Assembly: GCF_051860745.1 (NCBI RefSeq)
Contig: NZ_JBHYDN010000003.1
Coordinates: 119,307-183,306 of the forward strand
Direction: 5' to 3'
DNA length: 64,000 nt
From: Brevundimonas sp.
GTDB taxonomy: Bacteria > Pseudomonadota > Alphaproteobacteria > Caulobacterales > Caulobacteraceae
The notes under the pieces were generated by a model. That model worked only from the letters and a program-made list of their open reading frames with translations. It was not told the DNA's origin and ran no database searches. This document shows, piece after piece, positions 2,883 to 18,671 of this stretch (position 1 is the stretch's first letter; the number at the start of each line of letters is the position of its first letter). A program made the position numbers and the translations under genes.

Positions 2883-3482
2883 TCAGAGGCCGGCAGCCAG
2901 CGCGATCCGCATCAGTTCCGCGACATTGCGAGCCCCGGACTTGGTCATCAGGTTGGCCCGGTAGATCTCCACAGTTCTGGGGCTGATCTCCAGCTCGAAC
3001 GCGATCTGCTTGTTGAGCTTCCCCCCCACCACGCCCGCCAAGACGTCCCTTTCGCGGGGCGACAGCTGCGCGAGACGCCCTTCAGCGCTCTTGCGCAGGG
3101 CATCCGATCCCTCGGCCGCCCGGGGCGCCGAAAGGGCGTCGCGGATCGAGCCGATCAGACGTTCGTCATCGAATGGCTTTTCGATGAAATCGACAACCCC
3201 CGCCTTCATGGCCTCCACCGCCAGCGGGACGTCGCCATGCCCTGTCATCACGATCACCGGCGTGACAGAGCCGCGGCGCCCGAGCTCGCTCACCAACTCC
3301 AGACCTGTCAGGCCAGGCATTCGAATGTCAGTGAGGATGCAACCTTCCCCGACCGGGAGGGCCTCAAGGAAGTCACCCGCCGAGGCATAGAAACAGGCTT
3401 TGAGGCCGTTCACGTCGAGCAGGAAGGCAAGCGCATCGCGCAGGCCGTCGTCGTCATCGATGACATGCACCAGATCAGACAA
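2883..3482 (-). CDS. fixJ: Response regulator FixJ (REC + LuxR HTH)
   Basis: VHVIDDD...TDIRMPG...EKPF...LSPRERDVL...[19 protein letters not shown] start overlaps the fixL stop and follows GAGGAG. Confidence 0.9.
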
Positions 3483-4932
3483 GGGCGTTCTCCTCAGCGC
3501 GGGGCAGGGTGAATGCGAAGACTGCGCCACCACCGCTATTATCTTCCGCCCAGATTCGCCCGCCATGGGCTTCGATGATGGTGCGACAGATTGACAGCCC
3601 TACGCCCATGCCGGTCGCCTTGGTCGTGACGAAGGGCTGAAAGAGGCGTTCGCGCACCTCCGGGTTCAGGCCCGGCCCGGTGTCGGCGACGCTGATCCGG
3701 ATAGTCCAGGCGTCGTCGGCGCACACCCGGATTTCCAGCTGCCGCCGCGGCGCATCGACCATGGCGTCGATGGCGTTGCGTATCAGGTTTAGCGCCACCT
3801 GCTGAATCTGGATCTTGTCGACCATCACCGAACCGACATTTCGGGCCAGCCGCAGGTCCACCCGCACGTCCTGATCCTTGACGCCGACCAGCGCAAGCGC
3901 GCTTGCCTCTTCCATCACCTTGGCCGGATCCTCGAGCGTGTGTTCCGTTTCGCCCTTGGCCACGAACTCTCTGAGACGCTTGATGATGTCGCCCGCCCTC
4001 AGCGCCTGGTCGCCCGCGCGGTCGAGCGCGCTACGCAGCTTGACCAGATCAGGCTCGGGACCCTCAAGCAGGGTCACCGACCCCTTCATATAGCTGGCGA
4101 CGGCCGAAAGCGGCTGGTTCAACTCATGAGCCAGAGATGACGCCATTTCACCCATCGCGGTGAGGCGTGAGACATGCATCAACTCCGACTGCAACTGCTG
4201 CAGCCGCCGCTCCTGATCACGCCGCTCGGTCAGATCCCGGACAAAGCCTGTGAAGAACCGGCTCTCTCCAACGGCGGCCTCTCCCACGGCCAGTTCCATT
4301 GGAAAAGTGGAGCCGTCCTTGCGCTCGCCGACGACGATCCGACCGACGCCGATGATCCTCCGTTCCCCGGTACGGAGATATCGTTCCAGGTAGCTGTCGT
4401 GCTCGGATCGATAGGGGGTGGGCATGAGACAGCTGACGTTGCGCCCGATCGCCTCTTCGGATGTCCAGCCGAACAGTCTGACGGCGGCGGCGCTGAACGA
4501 CTGGATGATGCCGCTCGCATCGATGACGATCATCGCCTCCGGGACCGTTTCGAGGATCGATTGCAGGTGAGCCTGACGGCTGGTCGCCTCGCGGCTTCGG
4601 CGCCACAAGCGCTCTCCCCCCTCCGCCACGAAGGGGCCCAACAGGGCGAAACCCAACGCGTTGTAGAGGTTGGCCGTGTCGTTCCAGAGGGCGCTCTGCA
4701 GATGGATCGCGCCGGAGGCCAGGCAGAACGCTGTCGCCGCTAGGCCCGGGCCGCGGCCACCGAGCGCCGCAGCCACGAGAACGACCGGTACATAAAGCAC
4801 GAAGAACGAGCGATCGCCGAAGGCAGGCTCCAACGCCAATCGAATGCCGAACGCGAGGATCGCGCCGATGATCGCGGCCATATAGCCGTATCGGCGGGTC
4901 ATCGTCTCGGAGATGGTGAATCGAATTTGCAC
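3475..4932 (-). CDS. fixL: Heme-PAS oxygen sensor histidine kinase FixL with N-terminal membrane domain
   Basis: [15 protein letters not shown]...IIG...[13 protein letters not shown] heme-PAS signature; AHELNQP H-box; GMGVGL G-box. Start may be 4902. Confidence 0.92.
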
Positions 4933-5011: not shown

Positions 5012-5653
5012 TCAGGCGGCGGCCATGTCCGACAAGGCGCCGAGCCGCCGGATGCGGTATCTGCGGGCTCCAATGAACTCGACGAGACCCTCCGCCTGCA
5101 GCCTCCCCAGCATGCGGGAGATCGTCTCGATGGTGAGCCCCAGATAATCCGCCATGTCCTGGCGGCTCATCGGCAGCGCGACAATCTCGCCGCGGAAACG
5201 GTCGGCGATGTCGAGCAGGAAGCGGGCGACCCTTTCGCAGGCTGTCGCCCTTCCGAGCAACAGCATGTGGGATTGCGTGCGGCCCAGTTCGGTGGCGGTC
5301 GCTTGCCAGATCATGCGCTCGAGGCGGCCGGCGTCGTAGGCTGCGGAGCCGGAGCGGCGGATAGCGAGGACTTCGCAATCGCCCAAGGCTTCGGCCGAGA
5401 ACCGGTGGGTTGAGGTCATCGCGACCCCGAGCACATCTCCCTCGTAGTAGAAGTCGCCGATCTGACGACGGCCGTCGGCCAGCAGATGGCTGGTCCGGAC
5501 CGCGCCGCGGACGAGACGATAAATCAGGTCAGCGTCCTCGTCCTGGGCGTAAATCTCTTCGCCCTGTCGGAAGGTCAGGCGCGCGGCGCCGGTCCATTCC
5601 TCGGCGCCGCTCGGTGCGTTGTCGAAAGTCTGCTGAAGCAGGGTCGGCGTCAT
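5012..5653 (-). CDS. fixK: Crp/Fnr family regulator, FixK type
   Basis: GRRQIGDF, MSRQDMADYLGLTIETISR recognition helix; no N-terminal Cys cluster. Confidence 0.88.
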   Translation of the reverse strand: MTPTLLQQTFDNAPSGAEEWTGAARLTFRQGEEIYAQDEDADLIYRLVRGAVRTSHLLADGRRQIGDFYYEGDVLGVAMTSTHRFSAEALGDCEVLAIRRSGSAAYDAGRLERMIWQATATELGRTQSHMLLLGRATACERVARFLLDIADRFRGEIVALPMSRQDMADYLGLTIETISRMLGRLQAEGLVEFIGARRYRIRRLGALSDMAAA

Positions 5654-5830: not shown

Positions 5831-6415
5831 TCAATCAGAAGCCTGTGAGGCCGGACGGGAAGCTGTCCGGGTCAGGAGCACCAGCACCAGGCCGCTGCTG
5901 ATCAAGGCCATTCCAACGACTGGTCCCCAGCCCGACGCTGCACCCGTGAAGGTTCCGCCTGTGACGGCGATCGCGGCGACGGCGGAGGCAAGGGCGGAGG
6001 CGAAGAGCCATCTCCAGGCGCCCGCGGGATGAAGCTTCAGGGCCAACGCCAGCTGGATGCCGCCGTCCACGACCAGAGTCGAGATCGCCAGAATTACCAC
6101 TGCGAACGCTCCGGTGCGTGGACTGTAGAAGAGAAGGGTCCCGAAGCCCGCCGCCGCGGCGCCGGCGATCAAGAGGGCCCCAAGCGGTCGCCCACCGAGC
6201 AGCAAGAGCAGCCAGATAGCGAGTATGGTGATGCCCGCTATCCAAAGCGCCCAGCCCGATGTTCCGCCAAGTACAACGCCTGCCGGCTCAGGCGCCAAGG
6301 CAACAACCGCGCCGACCAGGATGAACGCCAGTGCTGCGAGGAAGACCGGTTGGGGCCGGGCGCTGATATCGCTGAGCAGTCCATCCGACCAGTGAGGCAG
6401 CGCGCGAGTCGTCAT
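5831..6415 (-). CDS. HdeD/DUF308-like membrane protein
   Basis: Several hydrophobic helices; DGGIQLALALK...GAWRWL pattern. Confidence 0.65.
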   Translation of the reverse strand: MTTRALPHWSDGLLSDISARPQPVFLAALAFILVGAVVALAPEPAGVVLGGTSGWALWIAGITILAIWLLLLLGGRPLGALLIAGAAAAGFGTLLFYSPRTGAFAVVILAISTLVVDGGIQLALALKLHPAGAWRWLFASALASAVAAIAVTGGTFTGAASGWGPVVGMALISSGLVLVLLTRTASRPASQASD

Positions 6416-6465
6416 GGGTGTCTCCTGCAGTCGGCTCTCTGTCGTTCACCAAGGCGATCCCTGCC

Positions 6466-6479
6466 TTGATGTCGATCAA
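6466..6479. promoter_or_regulatory. FixK box TTGAT-GTCG-ATCAA (divergent promoter)
   Basis: Perfect consensus with CC/GG flanks, centred about 57-62 bp from both start codons. Confidence 0.9.
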
Positions 6480-6533
6480 GGCAGGGATCGCCGCTGGCTA
6501 CATTGTCCGCAACAGGCTCCGAAGGAGGACTGC

Positions 6534-6977
6534 ATGGATATCATGGGATCAAGCCTGATCGTGGTCGCCGACGGACGGCAGGCCCGGCTGTTTGAGGAAC
6601 GGCGCCGTGGAGGACCGTTGACGGACGTCACCGCCCAACTTGGCGATCTGGCGTCCCATCGGCCTGAGGCCTCCAGCTCACGGACCCGCACCCATGACCG
6701 TTTCGGCCCGGCTTCCCACACAGGCGACGGGCCGACGCCACAGGACCGGCGCGAGGCGGATTTCGTTGGCCGTGTAGGCGTTAAGGCTGCCGAGATCATG
6801 CGCCGGGGGAGCTATCAGGACCTGGTCCTGATCGCCGCGCCGCGCGCGCTCGGCCAGCTGAGGCGAGCGATGGCGCACGCCGGCCTCGAGGTGGCGCACA
6901 CCGAGTCCCATGACCGTGTGTCCGAGAGCCCGGCGTCGCTTCGGACCCGCCTGCGTGACCTCCGCCTCGGGGCCTGA
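6534..6977 (+). CDS. Host-attachment (AtsE/baeRF12-like) protein
   Basis: IVVADGRQARLF...LVLIAAPRALGQLR pattern; AAGGAGG RBS. Confidence 0.8.
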   Translation: MDIMGSSLIVVADGRQARLFEERRRGGPLTDVTAQLGDLASHRPEASSSRTRTHDRFGPASHTGDGPTPQDRREADFVGRVGVKAAEIMRRGSYQDLVLIAAPRALGQLRRAMAHAGLEVAHTESHDRVSESPASLRTRLRDLRLGA

Positions 6978-7004
6978 AGGCCCTGGCGGCTTCCGATGGT
7001 CGGC

Positions 7005-7208
7005 CTAGCGGAACGCCGTGCCGGGCCGCACGCCGAGCCGTCGGAACAGCATGGCGGCCGGGCAGAATCCGGTGATCGAGGCCTGCAGCAGGTTGAGGCC
7101 CACGAACATCGTCAGCCACATCCAGGCCGGATGAATCCAATGGGTCAGCGCCACGCTGACCAGCACCATGAACCCGGCAAACATCATGACGGCGCGGTCG
7201 AGGCTCAT
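7005..7208 (-). CDS. DUF2892 (YgaP-like) small membrane protein
   Basis: MSLDRAV..FAG...FVGLNLLQASITGFCP; ATGA overlap with sqr. Confidence 0.85.
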   Translation of the reverse strand: MSLDRAVMMFAGFMVLVSVALTHWIHPAWMWLTMFVGLNLLQASITGFCPAAMLFRRLGVRPGTAFR

Positions 7209-8518
7209 GCCTTGGACTCCTGTACGGGGGTGGACTGGGTGGTGCGGCGCAGCTTGTGGGCGCCGATCAGATCGAGGGCCAGCTTCTCGTAGAGCGGCTC
7301 GGCCTGACCCTTGCGGACCTTGTGCAGAAAGTAGCTCTCGAAGGCGACCTTGGCCGTGTGCACCCAGCCACCGCTGGCGGACCAGTTGATATTGCGCGGC
7401 GGGATCTGCGGTTGGGCCATGAACGCCACGCCGCCGTCGCCGAAATCAGCCAGGCAGATAGCGTTCCAGCTGGCCTCGAAGCTCGGCGCCTCGCCGTCGA
7501 GGATCTGCTTCAGATTGGCCGAAATGGCCGAGACCATGCTCTCGATCATGAAGCCGGTCTTGGGCACGCCGACAGGCACCGGGGTCGGCCCGGTCGGCGG
7601 AATGGCGATGCAGACGCCGAGGGCGAAGATGTCGGGCCAAGTCGGATTGCGCTGGTGCTTGTCGACGAGGATGAAGCCGCGCGGATTGGTCAGTCCCTCG
7701 ATCCCGCGCACGGCCTCGACCCCGCGGAAGGCCGGCAGCATCATGGAGTAGGCGAAGGGCAGGTCGTGATTCGCCTTGACGGTGCCGTCCTCGCCGACCT
7801 CCTCGATATGCATCATGCCGGCGTCGACGCTCTTCACCTTGGCGTTGGTGATCCATTTGATGTGCCGCTGACGCATCTCGCTTTCCAGCAGGCCCTTGGT
7901 GTCGCCGACCCCGTCGAGGCCGAGGTGGCCGATGTAGGGTTCCGAGGTGACGAAGGTCATCGGCACCTTGTCGCGCAGCTTGCGACGGCGCAGTTCGGTA
8001 TCGAGGATCATGGCGAATTCATAGGCCGGGCCGAAGCATGACGCGCCCTGGACCGCTCCGACCACGATCGGGCCGGGGTTCTTCACGAACTCGTCGAAGG
8101 CAGTGGCGGCCTCGACCGCATGATCGACATGGCAGATCGACACCGTATGCCCGTTCGGGCCGAGGCCCGGAATCTCGTCGAAGGCCAACTCGGGCCCGGT
8201 AGCGATGACCAGATAGTCGTAGTGAAGCGCCCGACCGTCGGCCAGGTCGATGCCTTTTTCAGCGGGCCGGATGCGGCTCACGCCGACGTTGATGAACTCT
8301 ACGCCTTTGCGCTTCATCACCTCCGGCAGGCTGACTTCGATGGCTTCGCGCTTGCGCCAGTTCACCGCCACCCAGGGATTGGACGGGGTGAAATGGAAAG
8401 TGTCTCCCTTCGAAACCATGACGATCCGCGCGCGTTCGCCAAGAACGTGGCGCAGATCATAGGCGGCGATAGCGCCGCCCAGGCCTGCGCCGATGATGAC
8501 GATGGTGGGCCGGTTCAT
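7205..8518 (-). CDS. sqr: Sulfide:quinone oxidoreductase, type I-like
   Basis: GAGLGG, GASCFGPAYEF, VPKTGFMIE and CLADFGDGG motifs with both catalytic Cys. ATG 8518 follows GGAGA. Confidence 0.88.
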   Translation of the reverse strand: MNRPTIVIIGAGLGGAIAAYDLRHVLGERARIVMVSKGDTFHFTPSNPWVAVNWRKREAIEVSLPEVMKRKGVEFINVGVSRIRPAEKGIDLADGRALHYDYLVIATGPELAFDEIPGLGPNGHTVSICHVDHAVEAATAFDEFVKNPGPIVVGAVQGASCFGPAYEFAMILDTELRRRKLRDKVPMTFVTSEPYIGHLGLDGVGDTKGLLESEMRQRHIKWITNAKVKSVDAGMMHIEEVGEDGTVKANHDLPFAYSMMLPAFRGVEAVRGIEGLTNPRGFILVDKHQRNPTWPDIFALGVCIAIPPTGPTPVPVGVPKTGFMIESMVSAISANLKQILDGEAPSFEASWNAICLADFGDGGVAFMAQPQIPPRNINWSASGGWVHTAKVAFESYFLHKVRKGQAEPLYEKLALDLIGAHKLRRTTQSTPVQESKA

Positions 8519-8581
8519 AGGCGCTCTCCTTCGCGGGACGTTCTGAGATGCCCGATCCTGCGCCGCCCGGTCCGCCGCGCC

Positions 8582-8595
8582 TTGATCCGTATCAA
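8582..8595. promoter_or_regulatory. FixK box TTGAT-CCGT-ATCAA between sqr and the RND operon
   Basis: Perfect consensus with CC/GG flanks. Confidence 0.9.
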
Positions 8596-8639
8596 GGCTC
8601 ACGATCGGCGCCGGGAGGACAGTTCTCAGGCTTGCATTC

Positions 8640-8659
8640 ATATTAGTACCACCTAATAT
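8640..8659. promoter_or_regulatory. Candidate ArsR (SqrR/BigR) operator ATATTAG-N6-CTAATAT
   Basis: Perfect AT-rich 7-bp inverted repeat in GC-rich DNA, 31 bp before the RND adaptor ATG. Confidence 0.6.
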
Positions 8660-8690
8660 TAGCGCAAGCTTACATAAGGATAATCCTCTG

Positions 8691-9725
8691 ATGACGAAGC
8701 CGACGGCCCTGTTCGCCGCCCTCGCCGCCACCGCCCTTCTGGCAAGCGGTCTGTCGGCTTGCGGCCCGAAGCCCGAGGTCGCCGCCACGGCGCCCGCGCG
8801 GGGGGAGCGCCTCTCCGTGGCGGAAGCCCTGATCGACGCGGTCAAGCCGGCCTCGGCTGTGGTTGCGTCGCGCGATCTCGGCGAGGCGCGCGCCCGCATT
8901 CCGGGCACGCTCACCCAGTTGAACGTGCGCGAAGGCGATACGGTGCGCCAGGGCGAGGTCATCGGCGTGGTCACCGACAACCGGGTCGGACTTGAGACGG
9001 CGGCGTACGGCGCCCAGGTCGCGGCTGCCGAGGCCGAGGCCGCGCGCGCCCGGGCCGACCTGTCACGAATCCAGACCCTGTTCGATCGAGGCATCTACGC
9101 CCAGGCCCGGCTCGACCAGGCTCTCGCCGCCTCCCAGGCCGCCAGCGCCCAGGTCCGGGCGGCGCGCGCCGTGCGCTCGGCCAGCGCCGAGACCGGGGCC
9201 CAGGGCCGGATTCTCGCCCCGACGTCAGGCCGGGTGCTCGCCGCCGACGTGCCCGCAGGCTCGGTGGTCAACGCCGGACAATCGGTCGCCACGATCACCG
9301 CCGGACCGCTCGTCCTGAGGCTGGAATTGCCGGAGGCCCAGGGCCGCAACCTGCGGGTCGGTCAAAGCGTCGTCATTTCGTCCGAGGACCTGCCCGGCGT
9401 CAGCGCCGGGACCATCGCCCAGGTCTATCCGGCGTCCAACGCCGGCCAGACCACCGCGGACATCACCGTCGCCGGCCTGAGCAGCGACCGGGTCGGGCAG
9501 CGCGTCACCGTCCAGGTGCCGGTGGGACAACGGCGCGCGCTGGTCATCCCCCGCCGCGTCGTCTCCACCCGATACGGCATCGACTTCGTCCGCACCGTCG
9601 ACCGCGCCGGCCGCGTCAGTGAGGCGCCGGTCCAGCTGGGCGGCCCCGTCAGTGGTGACCGTGTCGAGGTGTTGTCGGGTCTCGCCGTCGGCAATGTCGT
9701 TCTGGCTCCGGAGACGGCCCGATGA
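8691..9725 (+). CDS. RND efflux periplasmic adaptor (lipoprotein)
   Basis: LSAC lipobox; ARIPG...V.EGD.V..G; RILAPTSG.V. Confidence 0.9.
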   Translation: MTKPTALFAALAATALLASGLSACGPKPEVAATAPARGERLSVAEALIDAVKPASAVVASRDLGEARARIPGTLTQLNVREGDTVRQGEVIGVVTDNRVGLETAAYGAQVAAAEAEAARARADLSRIQTLFDRGIYAQARLDQALAASQAASAQVRAARAVRSASAETGAQGRILAPTSGRVLAADVPAGSVVNAGQSVATITAGPLVLRLELPEAQGRNLRVGQSVVISSEDLPGVSAGTIAQVYPASNAGQTTADITVAGLSSDRVGQRVTVQVPVGQRRALVIPRRVVSTRYGIDFVRTVDRAGRVSEAPVQLGGPVSGDRVEVLSGLAVGNVVLAPETAR

Positions 9726-12700
9726 ACCTCGGCCTGTCCGGACGGCTGACAAAGGCCACACTGAATTCGCCGCTGACCCCCCTGATGCTGCTGGCGGCCA
9801 TCGCCGTCGGCCTGATGGCTCTCATGTCGATCCCCCGCGAGGAGGAGCCGCAGATCAGCGTGCCGATGGTCGACATCATGGTCGCGGCCCCGGGGCTGAG
9901 CGCCTCCGACGCCACCGAACTGGCGGCCAAGCCGCTGGAAGCCATCGTGCGCAGCATCGACGGCGTCGAGCACGTCTACACCCAGGTGCAGGACGACCAG
10001 GTTATGGTCACCGCCCGCTTCGTGGTCGGCTCGGACCCCGACGACGCAGCGGTCCGGGTGCATGAGAAGGTGCGCGCCAACTACGGCTCCATTCCCGTCG
10101 GGGTGTCCGAGCCGCAGATCGTCACCCGGGGCATCAATGACGTGCCCGCCGTAGTCCTGACCCTGACGCCGCGCGCCGACGCCGCCGGGCGCTGGAGCGA
10201 CCAGGCCCTGTACGACGTCGCCGTCCGCTTGCGCACCGAGATCGGCAAGGTCGAAGACGTCGGCCTGACCTTCATCGTCGGGGGCCGCCCGTCCGAGATC
10301 CGGGTCGAGCCCGATCCCGCCCGCATGGCGGCGCGCGGCGTCGCCCTGTCCTCGGTGCTCGAGACCGTCGCCCAGGCCAACCGCAGCTTCCCGGCCGGCG
10401 CCTTCCGCGACCAGGGCCAGGCCGTGGCGCTGCGCTCGGGCGAGCGGCTGGCCACGCCCGACGACGCCTCCCTGCTGACCGTCCGTTCGATGGCCGGCGA
10501 GCCTGTCTACCTGCGCGACGTCGCGACCGTCGTCCAGGCTCCGCGGGAGGACCAGGCCCGCGCCGCCCACTACGCCCGCGCCGGCGACGGCTGGAGCCGG
10601 ACCCCGGCGGTCAGCCTGGCCGTCGCCAAGCGTCAGGGCGCCAACGCCGTGGTCGTTTCGCACGGGGTGATGCAACGGGTCGAGGCGCTGAAGGGCACGC
10701 TGATCCCCGATGGACTCGAGGTCGTGGTCACCCGCGACTACGGCGAGACGGCCAATGAGAAAGCCAATGAGCTGCTGATGCACCTCGGTCTGGCCACGAT
10801 CTCCATCGTCATCCTGATCGGCTTCGCCATCGGCTGGCGCGAGGCGGGCGTCACGGCGGTGGTCATTCCCACGACCATCCTGCTCACTCTCTTCGCCTCC
10901 AACCTGATGGGCTACACCATCAACCGGGTCAGCCTGTTCGCCCTGATCTTCTCGATCGGCATCCTCGTCGACGACGCCATCGTCATGATCGAGAACATCG
11001 CCCGCCACTGGGCCATGAACGACGACCGCAGCCGCGCGCAGGCCACCGTCGAGGCCGTTGCCGAGGTCGGCAACCCGACCGTGGTCGCCACCCTGACCGT
11101 GGTCGCGGCCCTGCTGCCGATGCTGTTCGTCTCGGGCCTGATGGGACCGTATATGGCGCCGATCCCGGTCAACGCCTCGGCGGCCATGGTCTTCTCCTTC
11201 TTCGTCGCCGTGGTCATCGCGCCCTGGCTGATGATCCGTCTCGCCCGCAAGACCCTGGCCGGGGGCAAGGGTCACGAGCACGGCGAGGGGAGGCTCGGTC
11301 GCCTCTACCGCAAGGTGGCCACGCCGGTGATCCGCACGCGCCGCAGCGCCTGGACTTTCCTGATCGTGGTCGGTGTCGCCACCCTGCTGGCCATGTCGAT
11401 GTTCGGCTTCCGGGCCGTGCCGGTGAAGCTGCTGCCGTTCGACAACAAGTCCGAGCTGCAGGTCGTGCTGGACATGCCCGAGGGAACCAGTCTCGAGGCC
11501 ACCGAGCGCACCCTGGCCGGGGCTGCGGCCGTGGCGGGAACCCTGTCTGAGGTCGAATCGCTCGAAAGCTATGCCGGAACCGCGGCGCCGTTCAATTTCA
11601 ACGGTCTGGTGCGTCACTATTTCCTGCGCACGGGCGCCGAACAGGGCGACCTTGCGGTGATGCTCGCCCCCAAGGGCGAGCGCAGCCGTAGCAGCCACGC
11701 CATCGCCCTTGACCTGCGCCGCCGCCTGGCCGACCTGCCGCTGCCGGCCGGATCGTCGATCAAGGTGGTCGAGGCTCCACCGGGACCGCCGGTGCTGGCG
11801 ACCCTGTTGGCCGAGGTCTACGGCCCCGATCCCGCCACCCGCCGCGCGGTGGCCGCCGAACTGGAAACCCTGTTCCGGGCCGAGTCCTCGGTCGTTGATG
11901 TGGACAACAGCTACGGCGTCCGCCGTCCGGTCCTGCGCCTGATCCCCGACCGCGAGAAGATCGAACGCTTTGGCCTGTCCGAGCGCGAGGTGCACGACTC
12001 CATCGCCGCCGTCATGGGCGGCCAGATCCTCGGCTACGCCGCGCGCGATGACGAGCGCACCCCGGTGGAGATCGCCGTGCGCCTGCCCCAGTCGGCCCGG
12101 ACGTGGAACGAGCAGATGGCCGTCATGCCGGTGGCTGTGACCACGCTGGACGGCGGCCGGCGGCTGGTCGAACTGGGGGAGGTGGTCGAGGCCCGTCACG
12201 AGCTGGCGAGCTGGCCCGTCTACCGCCGTGACGGCCGGGCCGCCGAGATGGTCACCGCCGAACTGGCCGGCGAGTTCGAGGCCCCGATCTACGGCATCCT
12301 GGCCATCGACGCCGCCATCAAGGCCCACGACTGGAAGGGTCTGCCGCGTCCCGAGGTACGGCTCAACGGCCAGCCGTCGGACGAGACAGTCCCCACCGTG
12401 CTGTGGGACGGCGAATGGGAGATCACCTGGGTGACCTTCCGCGACATGGGCGCGGCTTTCGGCGTGGCCCTGCTGGGGATCTATGTTCTGGTCGTCGCCC
12501 AGTTCAAGGACTTCCGCATCCCCCTGGTGATCCTGACGCCCATCCCCCTGACCCTGATCGGCATCGTCATCGGCCACATGCTGTTCGGCGCGCCCTTTAC
12601 CGCCACCTCGATGATCGGCTTCATCGCCCTGGCGGGGATCATCGTGCGAAACTCGATCCTGCTGGTCGACTTCATCCGCCATGCCCGAACGCCGGGACGA

Positions 12701-12952
12701 CCCCTGCGCGAGGTCCTGCTGGAGGCGGGCGCCATCCGCTTCAAGCCGATCCTGCTCACCGCCCTGGCGGCCATGATCGGCGCGGCGGTGATCCTGTTCG
12801 ATCCAATCTTCCAGGGTCTGGCCATCTCCCTGCTGTTCGGGCTGATCTCCTCGACGATTCTGACGGTGCTGGTGATCCCCGCTATCTATATCGCGTTGAA
12901 AGACGACGGCCGCCCCTTGGCCGCGCCCCCAGCCGCGCAAGAGACCCCATGA
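9722..12952 (+). CDS. RND efflux permease (AcrB/AcrD/AcrF family)
   Basis: 1076 aa; REEEPQI, GILVDDAIVMIENI, GIIVRNSILLVD, RFKPILLT. Confidence 0.93.
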   Translation: MNLGLSGRLTKATLNSPLTPLMLLAAIAVGLMALMSIPREEEPQISVPMVDIMVAAPGLSASDATELAAKPLEAIVRSIDGVEHVYTQVQDDQVMVTARFVVGSDPDDAAVRVHEKVRANYGSIPVGVSEPQIVTRGINDVPAVVLTLTPRADAAGRWSDQALYDVAVRLRTEIGKVEDVGLTFIVGGRPSEIRVEPDPARMAARGVALSSVLETVAQANRSFPAGAFRDQGQAVALRSGERLATPDDASLLTVRSMAGEPVYLRDVATVVQAPREDQARAAHYARAGDGWSRTPAVSLAVAKRQGANAVVVSHGVMQRVEALKGTLIPDGLEVVVTRDYGETANEKANELLMHLGLATISIVILIGFAIGWREAGVTAVVIPTTILLTLFASNLMGYTINRVSLFALIFSIGILVDDAIVMIENIARHWAMNDDRSRAQATVEAVAEVGNPTVVATLTVVAALLPMLFVSGLMGPYMAPIPVNASAAMVFSFFVAVVIAPWLMIRLARKTLAGGKGHEHGEGRLGRLYRKVATPVIRTRRSAWTFLIVVGVATLLAMSMFGFRAVPVKLLPFDNKSELQVVLDMPEGTSLEATERTLAGAAAVAGTLSEVESLESYAGTAAPFNFNGLVRHYFLRTGAEQGDLAVMLAPKGERSRSSHAIALDLRRRLADLPLPAGSSIKVVEAPPGPPVLATLLAEVYGPDPATRRAVAAELETLFRAESSVVDVDNSYGVRRPVLRLIPDREKIERFGLSEREVHDSIAAVMGGQILGYAARDDERTPVEIAVRLPQSARTWNEQMAVMPVAVTTLDGGRRLVELGEVVEARHELASWPVYRRDGRAAEMVTAELAGEFEAPIYGILAIDAAIKAHDWKGLPRPEVRLNGQPSDETVPTVLWDGEWEITWVTFRDMGAAFGVALLGIYVLVVAQFKDFRIPLVILTPIPLTLIGIVIGHMLFGAPFTATSMIGFIALAGIIVRNSILLVDFIRHARTPGRPLREVLLEAGAIRFKPILLTALAAMIGAAVILFDPIFQGLAISLLFGLISSTILTVLVIPAIYIALKDDGRPLAAPPAAQETP

Positions 12953-13293
12953 CCGACGCCCTGCCCATGCCGAACGCCGCCGCCCTCGCCGAGCTCGAGG
13001 CCAGCGCCGCTCCCGCCGCCCGCCTCATGCGGCTGTTCGCCAACGAGCAGCGGTTGATGCTCATGTGCCGGCTGAGCGAAGGTGAGTGCGCGGTCGGCGA
13101 GTTGGCCGGCTATGCGGGCCTGTCACAGTCAGCCTGTTCGCAGCATCTCGCCCGCCTGCGCGAGGCCGACGTCATCGCTCCGCGGCGCGAGGCCCAGACC
13201 ATCTACTACGGCATCTCGGATCCGGCCGCGGCCCGCCTCATCGCCCTGCTCTGCGACATCTACCGCGACAAACCCCAGGACCAGACATCATGA
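12949..13293 (+). CDS. ArsR/SmtB repressor, SqrR/BigR-like
   Basis: ANEQRLMLMC...SQHLARLR...REAQTIYY...LLCDIY, with Cys in helix 2 and helix 5 as in SqrR/BigR. Confidence 0.85.
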   Translation: MTDALPMPNAAALAELEASAAPAARLMRLFANEQRLMLMCRLSEGECAVGELAGYAGLSQSACSQHLARLREADVIAPRREAQTIYYGISDPAAARLIALLCDIYRDKPQDQTS

Positions 13294-13673
13294 CCTATTT
13301 TTACGCCCGCACGATCGAAGGCGACTTCGAGGCTGTCGTCGAGCGGACCCGCGCCGCGTTGCAGAAACACGGCTTCGGCGTCCTCACCGAGATCGACGTT
13401 CAGGCCACGCTCAAGGCGAAGATCGGGGAGGACTTCCGCCCCTACCGCATCCTCGGCGCCTGCAACCCGGTCATGGCCCATGAGGCCCTGAAGATGGAGT
13501 CCCACGTCGGCGTCATGCTGCCCTGCAACGTCGTGGTCCAGCAGACCGACGGCGGCGTCGAAGTCTTTGCGGTCGATCCGGCGGCCTCGATGTCGGCCAT
13601 CGAAAACGCCGGACTTCTCAGGCACGCCCAAACGGTGGGCGAGCACCTGCGCGCCGCTGTCGCCGAAGTCTGA
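13290..13673 (+). CDS. DUF302 domain protein
   Basis: GFGVLTEIDVQATLK...ILGACNP...GVMLPCNVVV. Confidence 0.9.
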   Translation: MTYFYARTIEGDFEAVVERTRAALQKHGFGVLTEIDVQATLKAKIGEDFRPYRILGACNPVMAHEALKMESHVGVMLPCNVVVQQTDGGVEVFAVDPAASMSAIENAGLLRHAQTVGEHLRAAVAEV

Positions 13674-14134
13674 TTGCGGGACGTCTGGTTATCGCGGCGG
13701 GTCGAAAGCCTGCTTCTGATGCTGCCAGCCATAACGAGAGTCCCCGGGTGATCTGAGCCATGATTGGCGGGGCCGGCAAGCAGGGCAAGCCCCTGCTGGC
13801 GGCGCTTTGCGTGCGAGACCAGGAGCAAGCGGCCGTCCCCCAGGACGGCCAAAAACGAGAAAAACAGGGAAACCTTACTCTCGCGCGGCTCGCGGAGACT
13901 CTGCCGCTGAAGGAGGCGGCAAGTGTCGCGTGTGGAGTGGCGGAAGGCCGCTCAGCGACCGGAGACGGGGCGCAAATCCCGCCGTGGCGGGCCCTTCAAG
14001 GGGCGGAACGACAGGCGCGCGGGGCCATCCACAGATGACAGAGCCCTACGGTTGCCTGAGGCGGCCGACGTAGGGCACGGTTCGACCTCGCACTGTCAGT
14101 CTGACAACGCTGTCGAGGCGATATGCGGGGAGCA

Positions 14135-16156
14135 ATGATGATGTCAGCGGCCGATCCGGGCCCGGCCGCAAGCGCCGATCTGACAAAGGCGCTTGCGCAT
14201 GGGTATCGTCTGATGTCCGACGACCCAATGCTCGCGGAGGCCCAGGCAGACGAGATCCTGCGGCTCCATCCAGAGGAAGCAGAAGCACTGGTGTTGCTGG
14301 CCTCAGCCCGGCGCCGACGAGGCGCGCCGGAGGCAGCCTTGGCGGCCCTGGAGCCATTGTTGGCGACCCGGCCCGACTGGGGACCGCTGCATGCCGCGAT
14401 CGGACTCGCCCTGGCCGATCTGGGCCAGGGCAATACCGCCATCATTGCCATGAAACGCGCCGTGACGCTGGATCCCGGCCTGACCTCCGCTTGGCGCGCC
14501 CTGGCCGAGCAATTGGCGATGTGCGGGGACGACGCGGGCGCGGCGGTCGCCACCGCCGAGGAGATCCGTTCATCGGTCTCAGATCCGGTCCTGCTGGAAG
14601 CCGGGGCGGCGCTGGCTGACAATCGTCTGGCCATCGCTGAACGCTTGCTAAGGGACTATCTCAAGCGCGATCCGTTCAATGTACCGGCAATCCGCATGCT
14701 CGCCGAAACCGGGGGGCGGCTCGGTCGGCTCGACGACGCCGAACGTCTGTTGGAGCGCTGCGTCGAACTGGCCCCGGGCTTTGCGCCCGCGCGGCACAAC
14801 TATGCGACCGTCCTCTACCGCCAGAACAAGGCCGTCGCTGCATTGGCGCAGCTGGAGCAGCTGCTGAGCCTCGAACCGAACCGCCCCACCTATCTGAATC
14901 TCAAGGCCGCTGCGCTCGGCCGGGTCGGCGATTATGACGAGGCCATCGCGATCTGGAGTTCCCTGCTCAAGGCGCTTCCGGATCAACCCCGGGTCTGGCT
15001 CAGCTTCGGCCATGCGCTCAAGACCGTCGGGCGTCAGGCCGAGTGTATTGACGCCTATCGCCGCGCTGCGTCCCTCGCACCTCATATGGGAGAGGCCTGG
15101 TGGAGTCTGGCCAATCTCAAGACCCGGGTCTTCACCACCGCCGACATCGCCGAGATGGAGCGTCAGTGGGTCCGTGCGGATATCTCCGACGAGGACCGGC
15201 TGCATCTGGCCTTTGCGCTCGGCAAGGCGTTTGAGGACGCCGGCCGCTACGGCCCCTCGTTCGACCACTACCAGCAGGGGGCCGGACTACGTCGTGCGCG
15301 CGAGCGCTATGACGCCGCCGCCACGACTTCGCACATGGAGCGGTCCCGCGTCGTGTTCACCGCGGACCTGCTGGCCCGCAAGGCCGGGGCGGGCTGTCCG
15401 CTGCCGGATCCGATCTTCGTCGTGGGTCTGCCCCGGGCCGGTTCAACCTTGATTGAACAGATTTTGTCGAGCCATACGGCGGTGGAGGGAACCCAGGAAC
15501 TGCCCGACATCATCTCACTGGCGCGACGGTTGGGCGGCGGGCCCGAGGGGCGGGGGGCCACGAGCTACCCCGAGAGTCTGACGGAGCTAGACCCCGCAGA
15601 CCTTTCCGCCCTCGGTGAAGAATACCTCGCGCGGACCCAGGTGCACCGGAAGACCGATCGTCCGTTCTTTATCGACAAAATGCCCAATAATTTCGCTCAT
15701 GTCGGGCTGATCCATCTGATCCTGCCGAAGGCGAAGATCATCGACGCCCGACGGCATCCGATGGCCGGCTGTTTTTCCGCCTTCAAACAGCATTTCGCGC
15801 GCGGCCAGAATTTCTCCTACGACCTCTCTGACCTGGGTCGCTACTACGCTGACTACGTCGCCCTGATGCGGCATTTCGATGAGGTCCTGCCCGGTCGCGT
15901 GCACCGGGTGATCTATGAGGACATGATCGCCGATCCGGAGACGCAGACCAGGGCCCTGCTCGATCATTGCGGCCTTCCCTTTGAAGAATCCTGCCTGCGA
16001 TTTCACGAGACCGAGCGCGCCGTGCGGACCGCGAGTTCGGAACAGGTGCGACGCCCGATCTTTTCGGATGCCCTCGAGCAGTGGCGCCACTACCGGCCAT
16101 GGCTGGGGCCCCTGGAGACGGCCCTCGGGGATTCCCGGCGAATCTGGCGGCAGTAG
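14135..16156 (+). CDS. TPR-repeat sulfotransferase family protein
   Basis: N-terminal TPR-like repeats; FVVGLPRAGSTLIEQIL, FIDKMPNNF, VRTASSEQVRRPI. Confidence 0.88.
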   Translation: MMMSAADPGPAASADLTKALAHGYRLMSDDPMLAEAQADEILRLHPEEAEALVLLASARRRRGAPEAALAALEPLLATRPDWGPLHAAIGLALADLGQGNTAIIAMKRAVTLDPGLTSAWRALAEQLAMCGDDAGAAVATAEEIRSSVSDPVLLEAGAALADNRLAIAERLLRDYLKRDPFNVPAIRMLAETGGRLGRLDDAERLLERCVELAPGFAPARHNYATVLYRQNKAVAALAQLEQLLSLEPNRPTYLNLKAAALGRVGDYDEAIAIWSSLLKALPDQPRVWLSFGHALKTVGRQAECIDAYRRAASLAPHMGEAWWSLANLKTRVFTTADIAEMERQWVRADISDEDRLHLAFALGKAFEDAGRYGPSFDHYQQGAGLRRARERYDAAATTSHMERSRVVFTADLLARKAGAGCPLPDPIFVVGLPRAGSTLIEQILSSHTAVEGTQELPDIISLARRLGGGPEGRGATSYPESLTELDPADLSALGEEYLARTQVHRKTDRPFFIDKMPNNFAHVGLIHLILPKAKIIDARRHPMAGCFSAFKQHFARGQNFSYDLSDLGRYYADYVALMRHFDEVLPGRVHRVIYEDMIADPETQTRALLDHCGLPFEESCLRFHETERAVRTASSEQVRRPIFSDALEQWRHYRPWLGPLETALGDSRRIWRQ

Positions 16157-16289
16157 GCGCCCGTGTGCGGCGCCGCGACAGGATCCGATGACGGATCAAT
16201 GCGATTCCGCCCGACCGGGGAATAATGTAGCATTGACATTCCCCCGCCGGACCCGCGCTACTGTGCACCTGAACCGTCGGGGGGCTGAC

Positions 16290-18671
16290 ATGATCAAGAT
16301 GAAGTTTGGCGGGAGAGTGCGGGGCGCTCTTTGGTCGGCGGCCCTGATGGGCAGCACCATGCTGGCCGGCGTCCCGGCCGCAATGGCCCAGGACGCTGAG
16401 CGGACAACCACGATCGACGACATTATCGTCACCGCCCAGAAGCGTGACGAGAACCTGCAGGACGTGCCCATCAGTATCCAGGCGCTCGGCGGTGAACGGC
16501 TCGAGCAGATGGGGGTGTCGGACTTCAACGACTACGTCAAACTCCTGCCCAGCGTCTCCTACCAGACCATCGCTCCGGGATTCTCGGGCGTCTATATGCG
16601 CGGCATCGCCAGCGGCGGGGACGGCAACCATTCTGGTTCCCTTCCCAGCGTCGGCGTCTATCTGGACGAACAACCGGTCACGACCATCCAGGGGCCTCTC
16701 GACGTCAATGTCTATGACATGAGCCGGGTCGAGGCGCTGGCCGGCCCGCAGGGCACCCTGTACGGGGCCAGTTCCCAAGCCGGGACGATCCGCCTGATCA
16801 CCAACAAGCCCGACTTCAGCCGGCGCTACGGACAAGTCGATGTGGAGGCCAATTCGGTGGCCCACGGCGGAGTCGGCGGCAGCGTCGAGGGCTTCGTCAA
16901 TCTGCCGATCAGTGAGCGCATCGCCGCCCGCGTCGTCGGCTGGTACCGGCAGGATGCCGGTTACATCGACAATGTCGCCGGAACCCTCACCTATCCGACC
17001 TCGGGGGCGACCATTAACAACGCCAGCCGGGTCGAGGATGACTACAACGACTCCACCGTGATGGGCGGCCGGGCCGCGCTCAGGATCGAGCTGGACGATA
17101 CCTGGACGGCCACGGCGTCCCTGATGGGACAGACCGCCGACAGCAATGGCAACTGGTCTTATGACCCGGCCAAGGGCGACCTGAAGGCCAGCCATTTCTA
17201 TCCTGAAACCCTTGAGGACCGCTGGCACCAGGCGGCGCTCACGGTTACCGGACGCGTCGGTAGCTGGGACCTCGTCTACGCCGGGGCCCATATGAACCGC
17301 AATGACGAGATACAGCAGGACTACTCGGACTATTCCTTCTTCTATGACACCTTGGCCGGCTACGGGGCCTACTGGACCGACGACTCCGGCACGCCGCTCG
17401 ACAATCCGTCGCAGTATATCCAAGCCACCGACCAGTACCGGCGCAACAGCCACGAGGTTCGGCTGTCGTCGCCCACGGACGCCCGTCTCCGCGCCGTGGC
17501 CGGCGTGTTTTACCAGCAGCAAACGCATGACATCGAACAGAAATATCGGATCGACGGCCTTGCCGGCCCCGGGGGGGCGGTCCCCTCGCTGGAGGTCACA
17601 GGCCAGCCTGACACCCTGTGGCTGACGCAGCAGGTCCGAGAGGATGACGACACGGCCGTGTTTGGAGAGCTTTCCTACGACCTCACCGATCGACTCACCC
17701 TGACCGGCGGCCTGCGGCTCTTCAGGTCCGAGAACTCCCTGCGCGGCTTCTTCGGCTTCGGCACGGGGTACAGCGCCACGCTGGGCGAGGGTTCCTGCTT
17801 CTCCGGGCCGATTGTCCCCGATTCGCCCTGCACCAACCTTGACAAGAGTGTCGAGGAAAGCGGCTCGACCCATAGGCTGAACCTTACCTATAAGATCGAC
17901 GAAGACCGCATGGTCTATGCCACCTGGTCGACCGGCTATCGCCCCGGCGGCATCAATCGGCGCGGCACCCTGCCGCCCTATGATTCAGACTTCCTGACCA
18001 ATCATGAGATGGGCTGGAAGACCACCTGGATGGATGGCAGTCTGCGCTGGAACGGTGCGGTTTACGCCCTTCAGTGGGAGGACTTCCAGTTCTCCATCCT
18101 CGGATCGAACGGGCTGACCGAGATCAAGAATGCGGCCCAGGCCCGGGTGATGGGCGCCGAGAGCGACGTGGTTTGGCGGGTGACCCCTGACCTGACCCTG
18201 TCGGGTGCGATGGCCTATACGGACGCTGAACTCTCCGAAAACTATTGTGGGTTCCTTGCACCGGACGGGTCGCCCGAAACCAACTGCCCGACTCCGCAGT
18301 CACCGGAGGGCACCGAACTGCCGGTCACGCCCAGGTTCAAGGCCAACATGACGGCCCGCTACGAATTTCCTCTCGGCAGCCTCGACGGGTTCGTCCAGGG
18401 ATCGATGGTCTATGTCGGCGAAAACTGGACCGATCTGCGGCTGATCGAGCGAGCGATCATTGGCGAGCAGCCCGCCTATACGACGGCCGACCTGTCAGCC
18501 GGCCTGGCCAGCGATGTCTGGACCGCGACCCTGGCCGTCAGCAATGTCACCGACGAACGGGCCAGTCTGTATCGCTATGCCCAGTGCGCCGAACAGGTCT
18601 GCGGCGCCAGGACCTACGTCGTACCCAACCGACCTCGCATGATCAGCCTCCGCCTCGGCTGGAAATTCTGA
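16290..18671 (+). CDS. TonB-dependent receptor
   Basis: Signal peptide; IIVTAQKR...QDVPISI plug; GPQGTLYG; ends in RLGWKF. Confidence 0.93.
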   Translation: MIKMKFGGRVRGALWSAALMGSTMLAGVPAAMAQDAERTTTIDDIIVTAQKRDENLQDVPISIQALGGERLEQMGVSDFNDYVKLLPSVSYQTIAPGFSGVYMRGIASGGDGNHSGSLPSVGVYLDEQPVTTIQGPLDVNVYDMSRVEALAGPQGTLYGASSQAGTIRLITNKPDFSRRYGQVDVEANSVAHGGVGGSVEGFVNLPISERIAARVVGWYRQDAGYIDNVAGTLTYPTSGATINNASRVEDDYNDSTVMGGRAALRIELDDTWTATASLMGQTADSNGNWSYDPAKGDLKASHFYPETLEDRWHQAALTVTGRVGSWDLVYAGAHMNRNDEIQQDYSDYSFFYDTLAGYGAYWTDDSGTPLDNPSQYIQATDQYRRNSHEVRLSSPTDARLRAVAGVFYQQQTHDIEQKYRIDGLAGPGGAVPSLEVTGQPDTLWLTQQVREDDDTAVFGELSYDLTDRLTLTGGLRLFRSENSLRGFFGFGTGYSATLGEGSCFSGPIVPDSPCTNLDKSVEESGSTHRLNLTYKIDEDRMVYATWSTGYRPGGINRRGTLPPYDSDFLTNHEMGWKTTWMDGSLRWNGAVYALQWEDFQFSILGSNGLTEIKNAAQARVMGAESDVVWRVTPDLTLSGAMAYTDAELSENYCGFLAPDGSPETNCPTPQSPEGTELPVTPRFKANMTARYEFPLGSLDGFVQGSMVYVGENWTDLRLIERAIIGEQPAYTTADLSAGLASDVWTATLAVSNVTDERASLYRYAQCAEQVCGARTYVVPNRPRMISLRLGWKF

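Follow-up and report, generated by a model that had tools for sequence, protein, structure and literature searches.

The DNA analysed here, a 64,000-nucleotide stretch of a Brevundimonas genome (the window), contains a compact gene module that couples sulfide oxidation to an efflux pump. Its six genes form two divergent units: a leftward unit for a sulfide:quinone oxidoreductase (SQR) and a small membrane protein of the DUF2892 family, and a rightward unit for a periplasmic adaptor, an RND-family inner-membrane pump, an ArsR-family repressor and a DUF302 protein. This module is genuine, of ancient origin and widespread. Others have noticed it without characterising it, and the window carries an ordinary, minimal member. 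We propose that the locus is one half of a two-locus persulfide regulon whose pump exports sulfane sulfur, an account to which, taken whole, we give a probability of about 0.45. The evidence comes from the persistent linkage of this pump clade to sulfide genes, from an operator motif confined to two places in the genome, and from a published SqrR operator that proves to lie in front of an orthologous pump.

Linkage of the pump clade to sulfide genes

Scanning one genome per species gave at least 591 relatives of the window RND protein; the best 80 of these (62–97% identity) were taken with 10-kb flanks. The 80 loci come from Caulobacterales, Sphingomonadales, Hyphomicrobiales, Hyphomonadaceae and Maricaulis. 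Neighbours were counted by tblastn, the queries being the window proteins and one set of representatives for the neighbours that recur; Pfam confirmed the family names, and neighbour calls based on open reading frames (ORFs) were filtered on GC3 minus GC2, as this is high-GC DNA. The adaptor accompanies the pump at 79 loci, a two-cysteine ArsR at 75, DUF2892 at 73 and SQR at 67. Less regular companions are a rhodanese (38), a TrxC-like thioredoxin (35), an AhpD/CMD-like protein (25), an outer-membrane factor (OMF) of the OEP family (20), TauE and an MBL-fold dioxygenase (11 each), DUF302 (7), and cytochrome bd and peroxiredoxin (6 each). An earlier note on this DNA, made from the sequence alone, had staked its proposal of a sulfur-exporting pump on the clade being linked to sqr and sqrR elsewhere, and the counts bear that out. 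Gene order varies by lineage, with the regulator either 3′ of the pump or 5′ of the adaptor, while the gene set persists. In Sphingomonadales-type loci an OMF gene comes after sqr-DUF2892, on the same strand and separated by short gaps only (one such locus, L038, was read gene by gene), so that the parts of a tripartite pump are split over two divergent units, together with SQR.

In a FastTree analysis of the pump the alphaproteobacterial sequences form a clade of 81 rows with a support of 100, in which the window RND is nested, its nearest rows having the same gene order. SQR is a neighbour in 68 of these rows; ten have only DUF2892 and/or ArsR, and three have none of them, two of the three being cut off by contig ends. 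The SQR label changes 14 times on the tree compared with 28.2 times in shuffles, and none of 500 shuffles gave a value as low. Outside the Alphaproteobacteria, a sister subclade of seven rows retains DUF2892 in five, ArsR in four of those five and SQR in two. A second sister subclade of 13 rows (L111–L117, L119–L123 and L126; 40–44% identity) has no sulfur neighbours within 8 kb, and is common in other Pseudomonadota families (genomes G050, G130, G202 and others).

The clade is confined and patchy in its distribution. An even sample of 401 Pseudomonadota genomes held it (at least 57% identity) in 26, all of them Alphaproteobacteria, with the next tier of matches at 47% or below; in the loci of this sample, taken with 8-kb flanks, SQR was found at 12 of 20, DUF2892 at 14 of 20 and ArsR at 13 of 20. 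Within the genus of the window three of six genomes carry the pump clade: among the other genomes, G180 has it (97% identity), as does G104 (72%, a different sub-lineage); G272, G040 and G305 lack it.

Two further neighbours recur in the survey. A FixG/CcoG-like iron–sulfur gene lies just beyond DUF2892 in nine Bradyrhizobium-type loci (L039, L042, L043, L047–L049, L051, L053 and L054), and cytochrome bd genes flank six other loci. These neighbours hint that the module is tied to low-oxygen or sulfide-resistant respiration.

Components of the module

The SQR of the window matches the solved enzyme of A. ferrooxidans (3sz0) with E=1.8e-142 over residues 6–425 and that of Aquifex (3hyv) with E=2.4e-105 in phmmer searches; mitochondrial SQR and FCSD are weaker matches (1e-7 to 1e-11). 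Cys129 (in SICHVDH), Cys161 (GASCFGP) and Cys355 (NAICLADF) align with the catalytic C128, C160 and C356 of the A. ferrooxidans enzyme. To judge by these matches the window protein is a type I SQR. No signal peptide was found in it.

The pump is a full-length RND permease, and its gene overlaps by 4 bp that of an adaptor from the RND_mfp family. The adaptor scores 135 bits against TIGR01730 (cut-off 94.9), and PF00873 covers residues 18–1059 of the permease. Among NCBIfam models the permease scores 407 bits with RND_permease_2, 323 with RND_permease_1 and 263 with CusA/CzcA, all of them under the curated cut-offs, and its top PDB match, the RND efflux transporter 6vej, is distant at 215 bits. 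The motif ILVDDAIV in transmembrane helix 4 is one that we take to resemble the HAE-1 type. The scores favour a pump of the multidrug or hydrophobe type over one of the heavy-metal type, and a heavy-metal (HME) pump was dropped as a candidate on the ranking of the multidrug-type models above CusA/CzcA. The locus encodes no OMF partner for the pump; a TolC-family gene is present on contig C10 of the same genome (TIGR01844, 341.6 bits). The permease, of 1076 residues, has no cysteine at all, and the single cysteine of the adaptor is that of its lipobox; this scarcity could be an adaptation to a persulfidating environment, or chance.

The best PDB matches of the ArsR protein are HlyU, SqrR (13ct/6o8l), NolR, YgaV (3cuo) and BigR, with E-values from 6e-19 to 2e-14. 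Against NF040642, the NCBIfam equivalog model for BigR, it scores 75.2 bits, under the cut-off of 155. On these scores it belongs to the wider SqrR/BigR/HlyU/YgaV subgroup and not to the BigR equivalog. The earlier note had described an ArsR with two cysteines: there are four (40, 47, 63 and 102), of which C40 and C102 form the conserved pair. In an alignment with 89 relatives, Cys40 falls at the first sensor position and is 93% conserved, while the second cysteine of the clade stands at position 102 in 47%, at 105 in 15% and at 106 in 43%. The second member of the pair is off the canonical site: the sensor pair of SqrR is C41/C107, and C102 of the window protein lies one helical turn (four residues) before the canonical SqrR/HlyU position, 106.

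The two remaining proteins had been put forward as accessories of the pump, a role that the survey favours for DUF2892 (73 of 80 loci) and much less for DUF302 (7 of 80). The DUF2892 protein is a two-helix membrane protein that matches the transmembrane domain of YgaP (PDB 2mpn, E=4.4e-5). It is the most faithful partner of the pump, being kept in loci that have no SQR and in the sister subclade. Its Cys49, in the motif TGFCPAA, is invariant in all 74 locus-linked copies. It closely follows the second predicted helix and precedes an Arg-rich tail, which by the positive-inside rule suggests a position at the cytoplasmic interface. Speculatively, the protein may accept sulfur at the membrane or serve the pump as a small subunit. 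The DUF302 protein matches TT1751 (PDB 1j3m, E=4.8e-25), and no signal peptide was found in it. An alignment of 11 locus-linked copies shows two invariant cysteines, C58 (GACNP) and C78 (LPCN), which are kept even at 26% identity. Rare as it is (beyond the seven loci it occurs at L118 and L145), DUF302 recurs in distant lineages and appears to be an occasional two-cysteine accessory of the pump locus.

Promoter region and a second persulfide locus

The intergenic region between sqr and the adaptor gene, 172 bp long, contains a perfect FixK/FNR-type box, conserved at loci L001, L003, L004 and L006, and two overlapping candidate operators for the ArsR protein. The genes for a FixL-like kinase and a Crp/FixK-family regulator just to the left of the locus fit a FixK box in the sqr/pump promoter. 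The operators stand 16–31 bp upstream of the ATG of the adaptor and at least 122 bp from the start codon of sqr, which makes repression of the pump operon the safer prediction; the FixK box may be the main input to sqr. The 4-N8-4 geometry of the operator core, ATTA-N8-TAAT, is also that of the SqrR boxes in the literature, ATTC-N8-GAAT and ATTC-N8-ATAT. Palindromes of the form ATATnnG-N6-CnnATAT occur in most of the orthologous intergenic regions, and exact ATTC-N8-GAAT boxes in several.

With up to two mismatches allowed, the operator motif occurs at three sites in the whole 3.1-Mb genome, in two intergenic regions, one in the window and the other on contig C2; reversed and shuffled genomes gave no site. 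At the C2 locus (C2:22.8–25.2 kb, L151:2793–5193) a gene for a Blh-like dioxygenase is divergent from arsR2-rhodanese-tauE, and in the region between them the motif stands twice in tandem, as ATATTAG-N6-CTAAAT and, 15 bp further on, in a weaker form. The Blh-like persulfide dioxygenase (PDO) scores 381 bits against the dioxygenase half of NF040641, and the second ArsR is 53% identical to that of the window. The blh, rhodanese and tauE genes therefore appear, by this shared motif, to belong to one regulon with the window locus. This weakens the argument from which export had first been proposed, namely that a locus with SQR and no dioxygenase, rhodanese, TauE or OMF may send its sulfur outwards. 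No PDO, rhodanese, TauE or OMF gene was found in the locus or its flanking genes, as the earlier note had said; for the genome as a whole the statement fails, with the first three on contig C2 and TolC on C10. The step from a missing dioxygenase to export was dropped.

A published SqrR operator in front of an orthologous pump

The sequence of SqrR, taken from the PDB alignment, led to a protein 97% identical to it, and the contig encoding that protein was examined. After the gene for the SqrR homologue come an RND gene (1076 aa), convergent with it, and a gene for an adaptor. The RND protein is 57% identical to the window pump over 1067 residues, a value inside the clade's range. An exact match to the 26-bp 'rcc1451' operator of the literature, GACATATTCACAACTCGGAATGTAA, lies about 40 bp upstream of the start codon of that adaptor, so the natural reference operator that SqrR binds tightly is the promoter of a pump of this family. 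The position of an orthologous pump under a biochemically validated SqrR operator is supported by this match; none of the SqrR papers examined that work with the rcc1451 operator treats it as the promoter of a pump. The operator as printed in a 2020 preprint (ATTCACAACTTCGGAAT) gave no match; this form has an extra T, which would give N9, and the genome (L153:6543–6567) agrees with the 2026 version, ATTCACAACTCGGAAT, with N8.

The SqrR regulon of R. capsulatus is among the closest known counterparts of the system described here. Both have a two-cysteine ArsR (in the window a predicted persulfide sensor), an orthologous pump and a 4-N8-4 operator near the adaptor start. In R. capsulatus the regulator gene is beside adaptor-RND and sqr (rcc0785) lies apart, whereas in the window sqr-DUF2892 is adjacent and divergent. 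The window differs further in the DUF302 gene after the regulator, in the FixK box, in the second sensor cysteine four residues earlier, and in its half-sites, ATTA/TAAT as against ATTC/GAAT.

Proposed role and alternative explanations

In this account the locus would supply one of the two parts of a small persulfide regulon that helps the cell to withstand sulfide when oxygen is scarce. By homology, SQR would convert H2S to zero-valent (sulfane) sulfur and pass the electrons to quinone, and the FixK box would raise expression when oxygen is low. Sulfane sulfur would then cross-link Cys40 and Cys102 of the ArsR protein and release the repressor from the ATTA-N8-TAAT operators, switching on adaptor-RND-arsR-DUF302; through the near-identical operator on C2, blh, rhodanese and tauE would be switched on as well. 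Both of these steps are modelled on SqrR and on the sequence of the sites. The adaptor and RND pump, with the TolC encoded elsewhere, would take up hydrophobic or amphiphilic sulfane sulfur at the inner membrane or in the periplasm and expel it from the cell, candidate cargoes being S8, polysulfanes and organic polysulfides, and the pump would serve as an overflow beside the cytoplasmic dioxygenase route. Export of sulfane sulfur is plausible for this pump, as a zero-valent cargo fits the linkage to SQR, the OMF gene placed after sqr and a pump of the hydrophobe type.

Several points weigh against this proposal. The Blh/rhodanese/TauE route is canonical and belongs to the same predicted regulon, so the fate of the sulfur can be accounted for without export. 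Whether the ArsR protein also controls sqr is uncertain here, given the distance of the operator from the sqr start codon, and Cys102 is shifted by four residues from the canonical sensor position. SQR may work at either face of the membrane; the title of a 1999 study by Schutz, listed among the references of PMC9995734, places the R. capsulatus enzyme in the periplasm. Among eight genomes that have the pump and no adjacent SQR gene, seven hold no type I SQR anywhere, with weak flavoprotein matches only. A strict role as exporter of the SQR product therefore does not fit the pump, and its strict dependence on SQR was dropped. Finally, deletion of an SQR-RND-adaptor operon in Azospira suillum PS left the rate of perchlorate-dependent sulfide oxidation unchanged (PMC5358917).

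The last two observations also speak for a serious rival, in which the pump answers reactive-sulfur stress in general and the persulfide sensor provides only a cue; the cargo would be persulfidated or polysulfidated organic compounds, damaged lipids or quinones, or metal–sulfide complexes. The seven genomes keep ArsR and DUF2892 with the pump, the Rhodobacter-type pump adjoins its regulator and not sqr, the Azospira authors themselves read their results as a stress or metal–sulfide response (PMC5358917), and genes for AhpD-like proteins, peroxiredoxin and thioredoxin recur in the loci. Against this rival, SQR is adjacent at most of the loci surveyed and in Sphingomonadales the OMF gene follows sqr on the same strand; metal cations in particular are disfavoured by the lead of the multidrug-type models over the heavy-metal ones. 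We regard this explanation as possible though on balance doubtful.

A more deflationary explanation is that an ordinary multidrug-type RND pump stands by the sulfide genes through genomic inheritance, has no sulfur substrate and is controlled by an ArsR that is merely a local repressor. The pump sequence indeed has no sulfur-specific feature, its best family matches are generic RND models, and the 13-member sister subclade lives without sulfur neighbours. Yet the linkage has outlasted much reshuffling of genes in several alphaproteobacterial orders and reaches into other classes, the regulator retains its presumed persulfide-sensing cysteine pair, the operator motif is common only to the window and the blh/rhodanese/tauE locus, and binding of SqrR at the orthologous promoter and induction by H2S in Azospira have both been published; together these make simple inheritance improbable. 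Least probable is export of an oxidised sulfur anion (sulfite, thiosulfate or a polythionate) in place of zero-valent sulfur. PDO and TauE, at 11 loci each, indicate that oxidised products are made near some of these pumps, but 69 of the 80 loci are without PDO, and TauE in the same predicted regulon already serves sulfite export. Small anions, moreover, cross the outer membrane via porins and are atypical substrates for RND pumps.

A broader proposal is that adaptor-RND, DUF2892 as a small cysteine-bearing partner and a TolC-type channel are the dedicated exit route for zero-valent sulfur made at the membrane of Gram-negative cells. We hold this to be rather unlikely as it stands; if true, it would explain the extracellular deposition of sulfur by R. 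capsulatus, a step with no known exporter. The mechanism by which extracellular sulfur globules form in that organism is unknown (PMC9995734), and a 2025 paper has proposed outer-membrane vesicles as a route for sulfur in Chlorobaculum. A pump clade that is linked to sqr and probably controlled by a persulfide sensor is an obvious, genetically testable candidate for the exit of sulfur. To this the window adds a clean minimal module that includes DUF302, a likely oxygen input through FixK, and a two-locus regulon indicated by a motif unique in the genome.

Comparison with other known systems

The link between SQR and an RND pump is already in print. In Azospira suillum PS, H2S strongly induces the operon Dsui_3440–3443 (an unknown protein, RND, SQR and MFP), which Bar-seq also flagged; a DUF2892 gene at another place in the genome is induced about 10-fold (Mehta-Kolte et al. 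2017, PMC5358917). Like the window, this operon encodes SQR together with an adaptor and an RND pump; unlike the window, it belongs to a betaproteobacterium and has SQR inside the pump operon. Li et al. 2025 (Dahl laboratory, Mol Microbiol, PMC12423496) noted that genes of a group of two-cysteine, sulfane-sulfur-responsive ArsR proteins adjoin RND transporter genes. The neighbourhoods they describe in Alphaproteobacteria, such as Tsuneonella and Rhodopseudomonas, resemble that of the window in having a persulfide-type ArsR by RND, and are given as a neighbourhood remark alone, without analysis of the pump clade, DUF2892, OMF or substrate. The earlier note knew of no characterised substrate for such a pump, and none was found in the literature searched.

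The BigR operon of Xylella and Agrobacterium (bigR, blh and a tauE-type exporter gene) resembles the C2 locus of the window genome, whereas in the window locus SQR and an RND pump stand where that operon has dioxygenase and exporter. E. coli YgaV–YgaP combines an ArsR regulator from the subgroup of the window protein with the two-helix membrane domain also seen in DUF2892; in YgaP this domain is fused to a rhodanese, whereas the DUF2892 protein of the window is free-standing, with 67 residues, and translationally coupled to SQR. The sqr1 operon of Synechocystis PCC 6803, which we take to be suoRSCT, with an ArsR-type repressor and a transporter that is presumably ChrA-like and not RND, is like the window in having SQR and DUF302 together, and unlike it in lying on a cyanobacterial plasmid, for which a link to arsenic has been reported. 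The DUF302 gene of this plasmid operon is attributed to Nagy et al. 2014 in the citation given by PMC5061849. DUF302 genes have also been noted inside sox clusters.

Locus layout and flanking genes

The features of the locus and its flanks are listed in table 1.

Table 1. Genes and candidate regulatory sites of the sulfide-linked pump locus, with flanking genes (positions in the window).
Feature	Position	Strand	Length	Basis or remark
FixL-like PAS histidine kinase, left flank	3475–4932	−		
Crp/FixK-family regulator, left flank	5012–5653	−		
Host_attach/baeRF-family protein, left flank	6414–6977	+		
DUF2892/YgaP_TM	7005–7208	−	67 aa	PF11127 E=1.7e-13
SQR, type I (predicted)	7205–8518	−	437 aa	phmmer to solved SQRs
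FixK/FNR-type box TTGATCCGTATCAA	8582–8595	.		direct reading of divergent promoter region
Candidate ArsR operator 1, perfect palindrome ATATTAG-N6-CTAATAT	8640–8659	.		core ATTA-N8-TAAT at 8642–8657
Candidate ArsR operator 2, imperfect ATATTAG-N6-CTTACAT	8656–8675	.		overlaps operator 1
RND periplasmic adaptor (MFP) lipoprotein	8691–9725	+	344 aa	TIGR01730, HlyD_3, HlyD_D23, lipobox LSAC
RND inner-membrane pump	9722–12952	+	1076 aa	PF00873 E=1e-143
ArsR-family repressor, SqrR/BigR/HlyU/YgaV group	12949–13293	+	114 aa	
DUF302 protein	13290–13673	+	127 aa	PF03625 E=2.4e-26
TPR-repeat protein fused to sulfotransferase domain, right flank	14123–16156	+		
TonB-dependent receptor ORF, right flank	15981–18671	+		

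A scan of positions 6900–13900 for sigma-70 promoters returned no site, and no convincing terminator was found 3′ of DUF302. The TPR–sulfotransferase and TonB-dependent receptor genes on the right have no visible relation to the sulfide module. The layout first described for the locus, with sqr-DUF2892 divergent from adaptor-RND-ArsR-DUF302 and start and stop codons overlapping, agrees with the coordinates: each of the four within-unit junctions is a 4-bp start/stop overlap (7205–7208, 9722–9725, 12949–12952 and 13290–13293).

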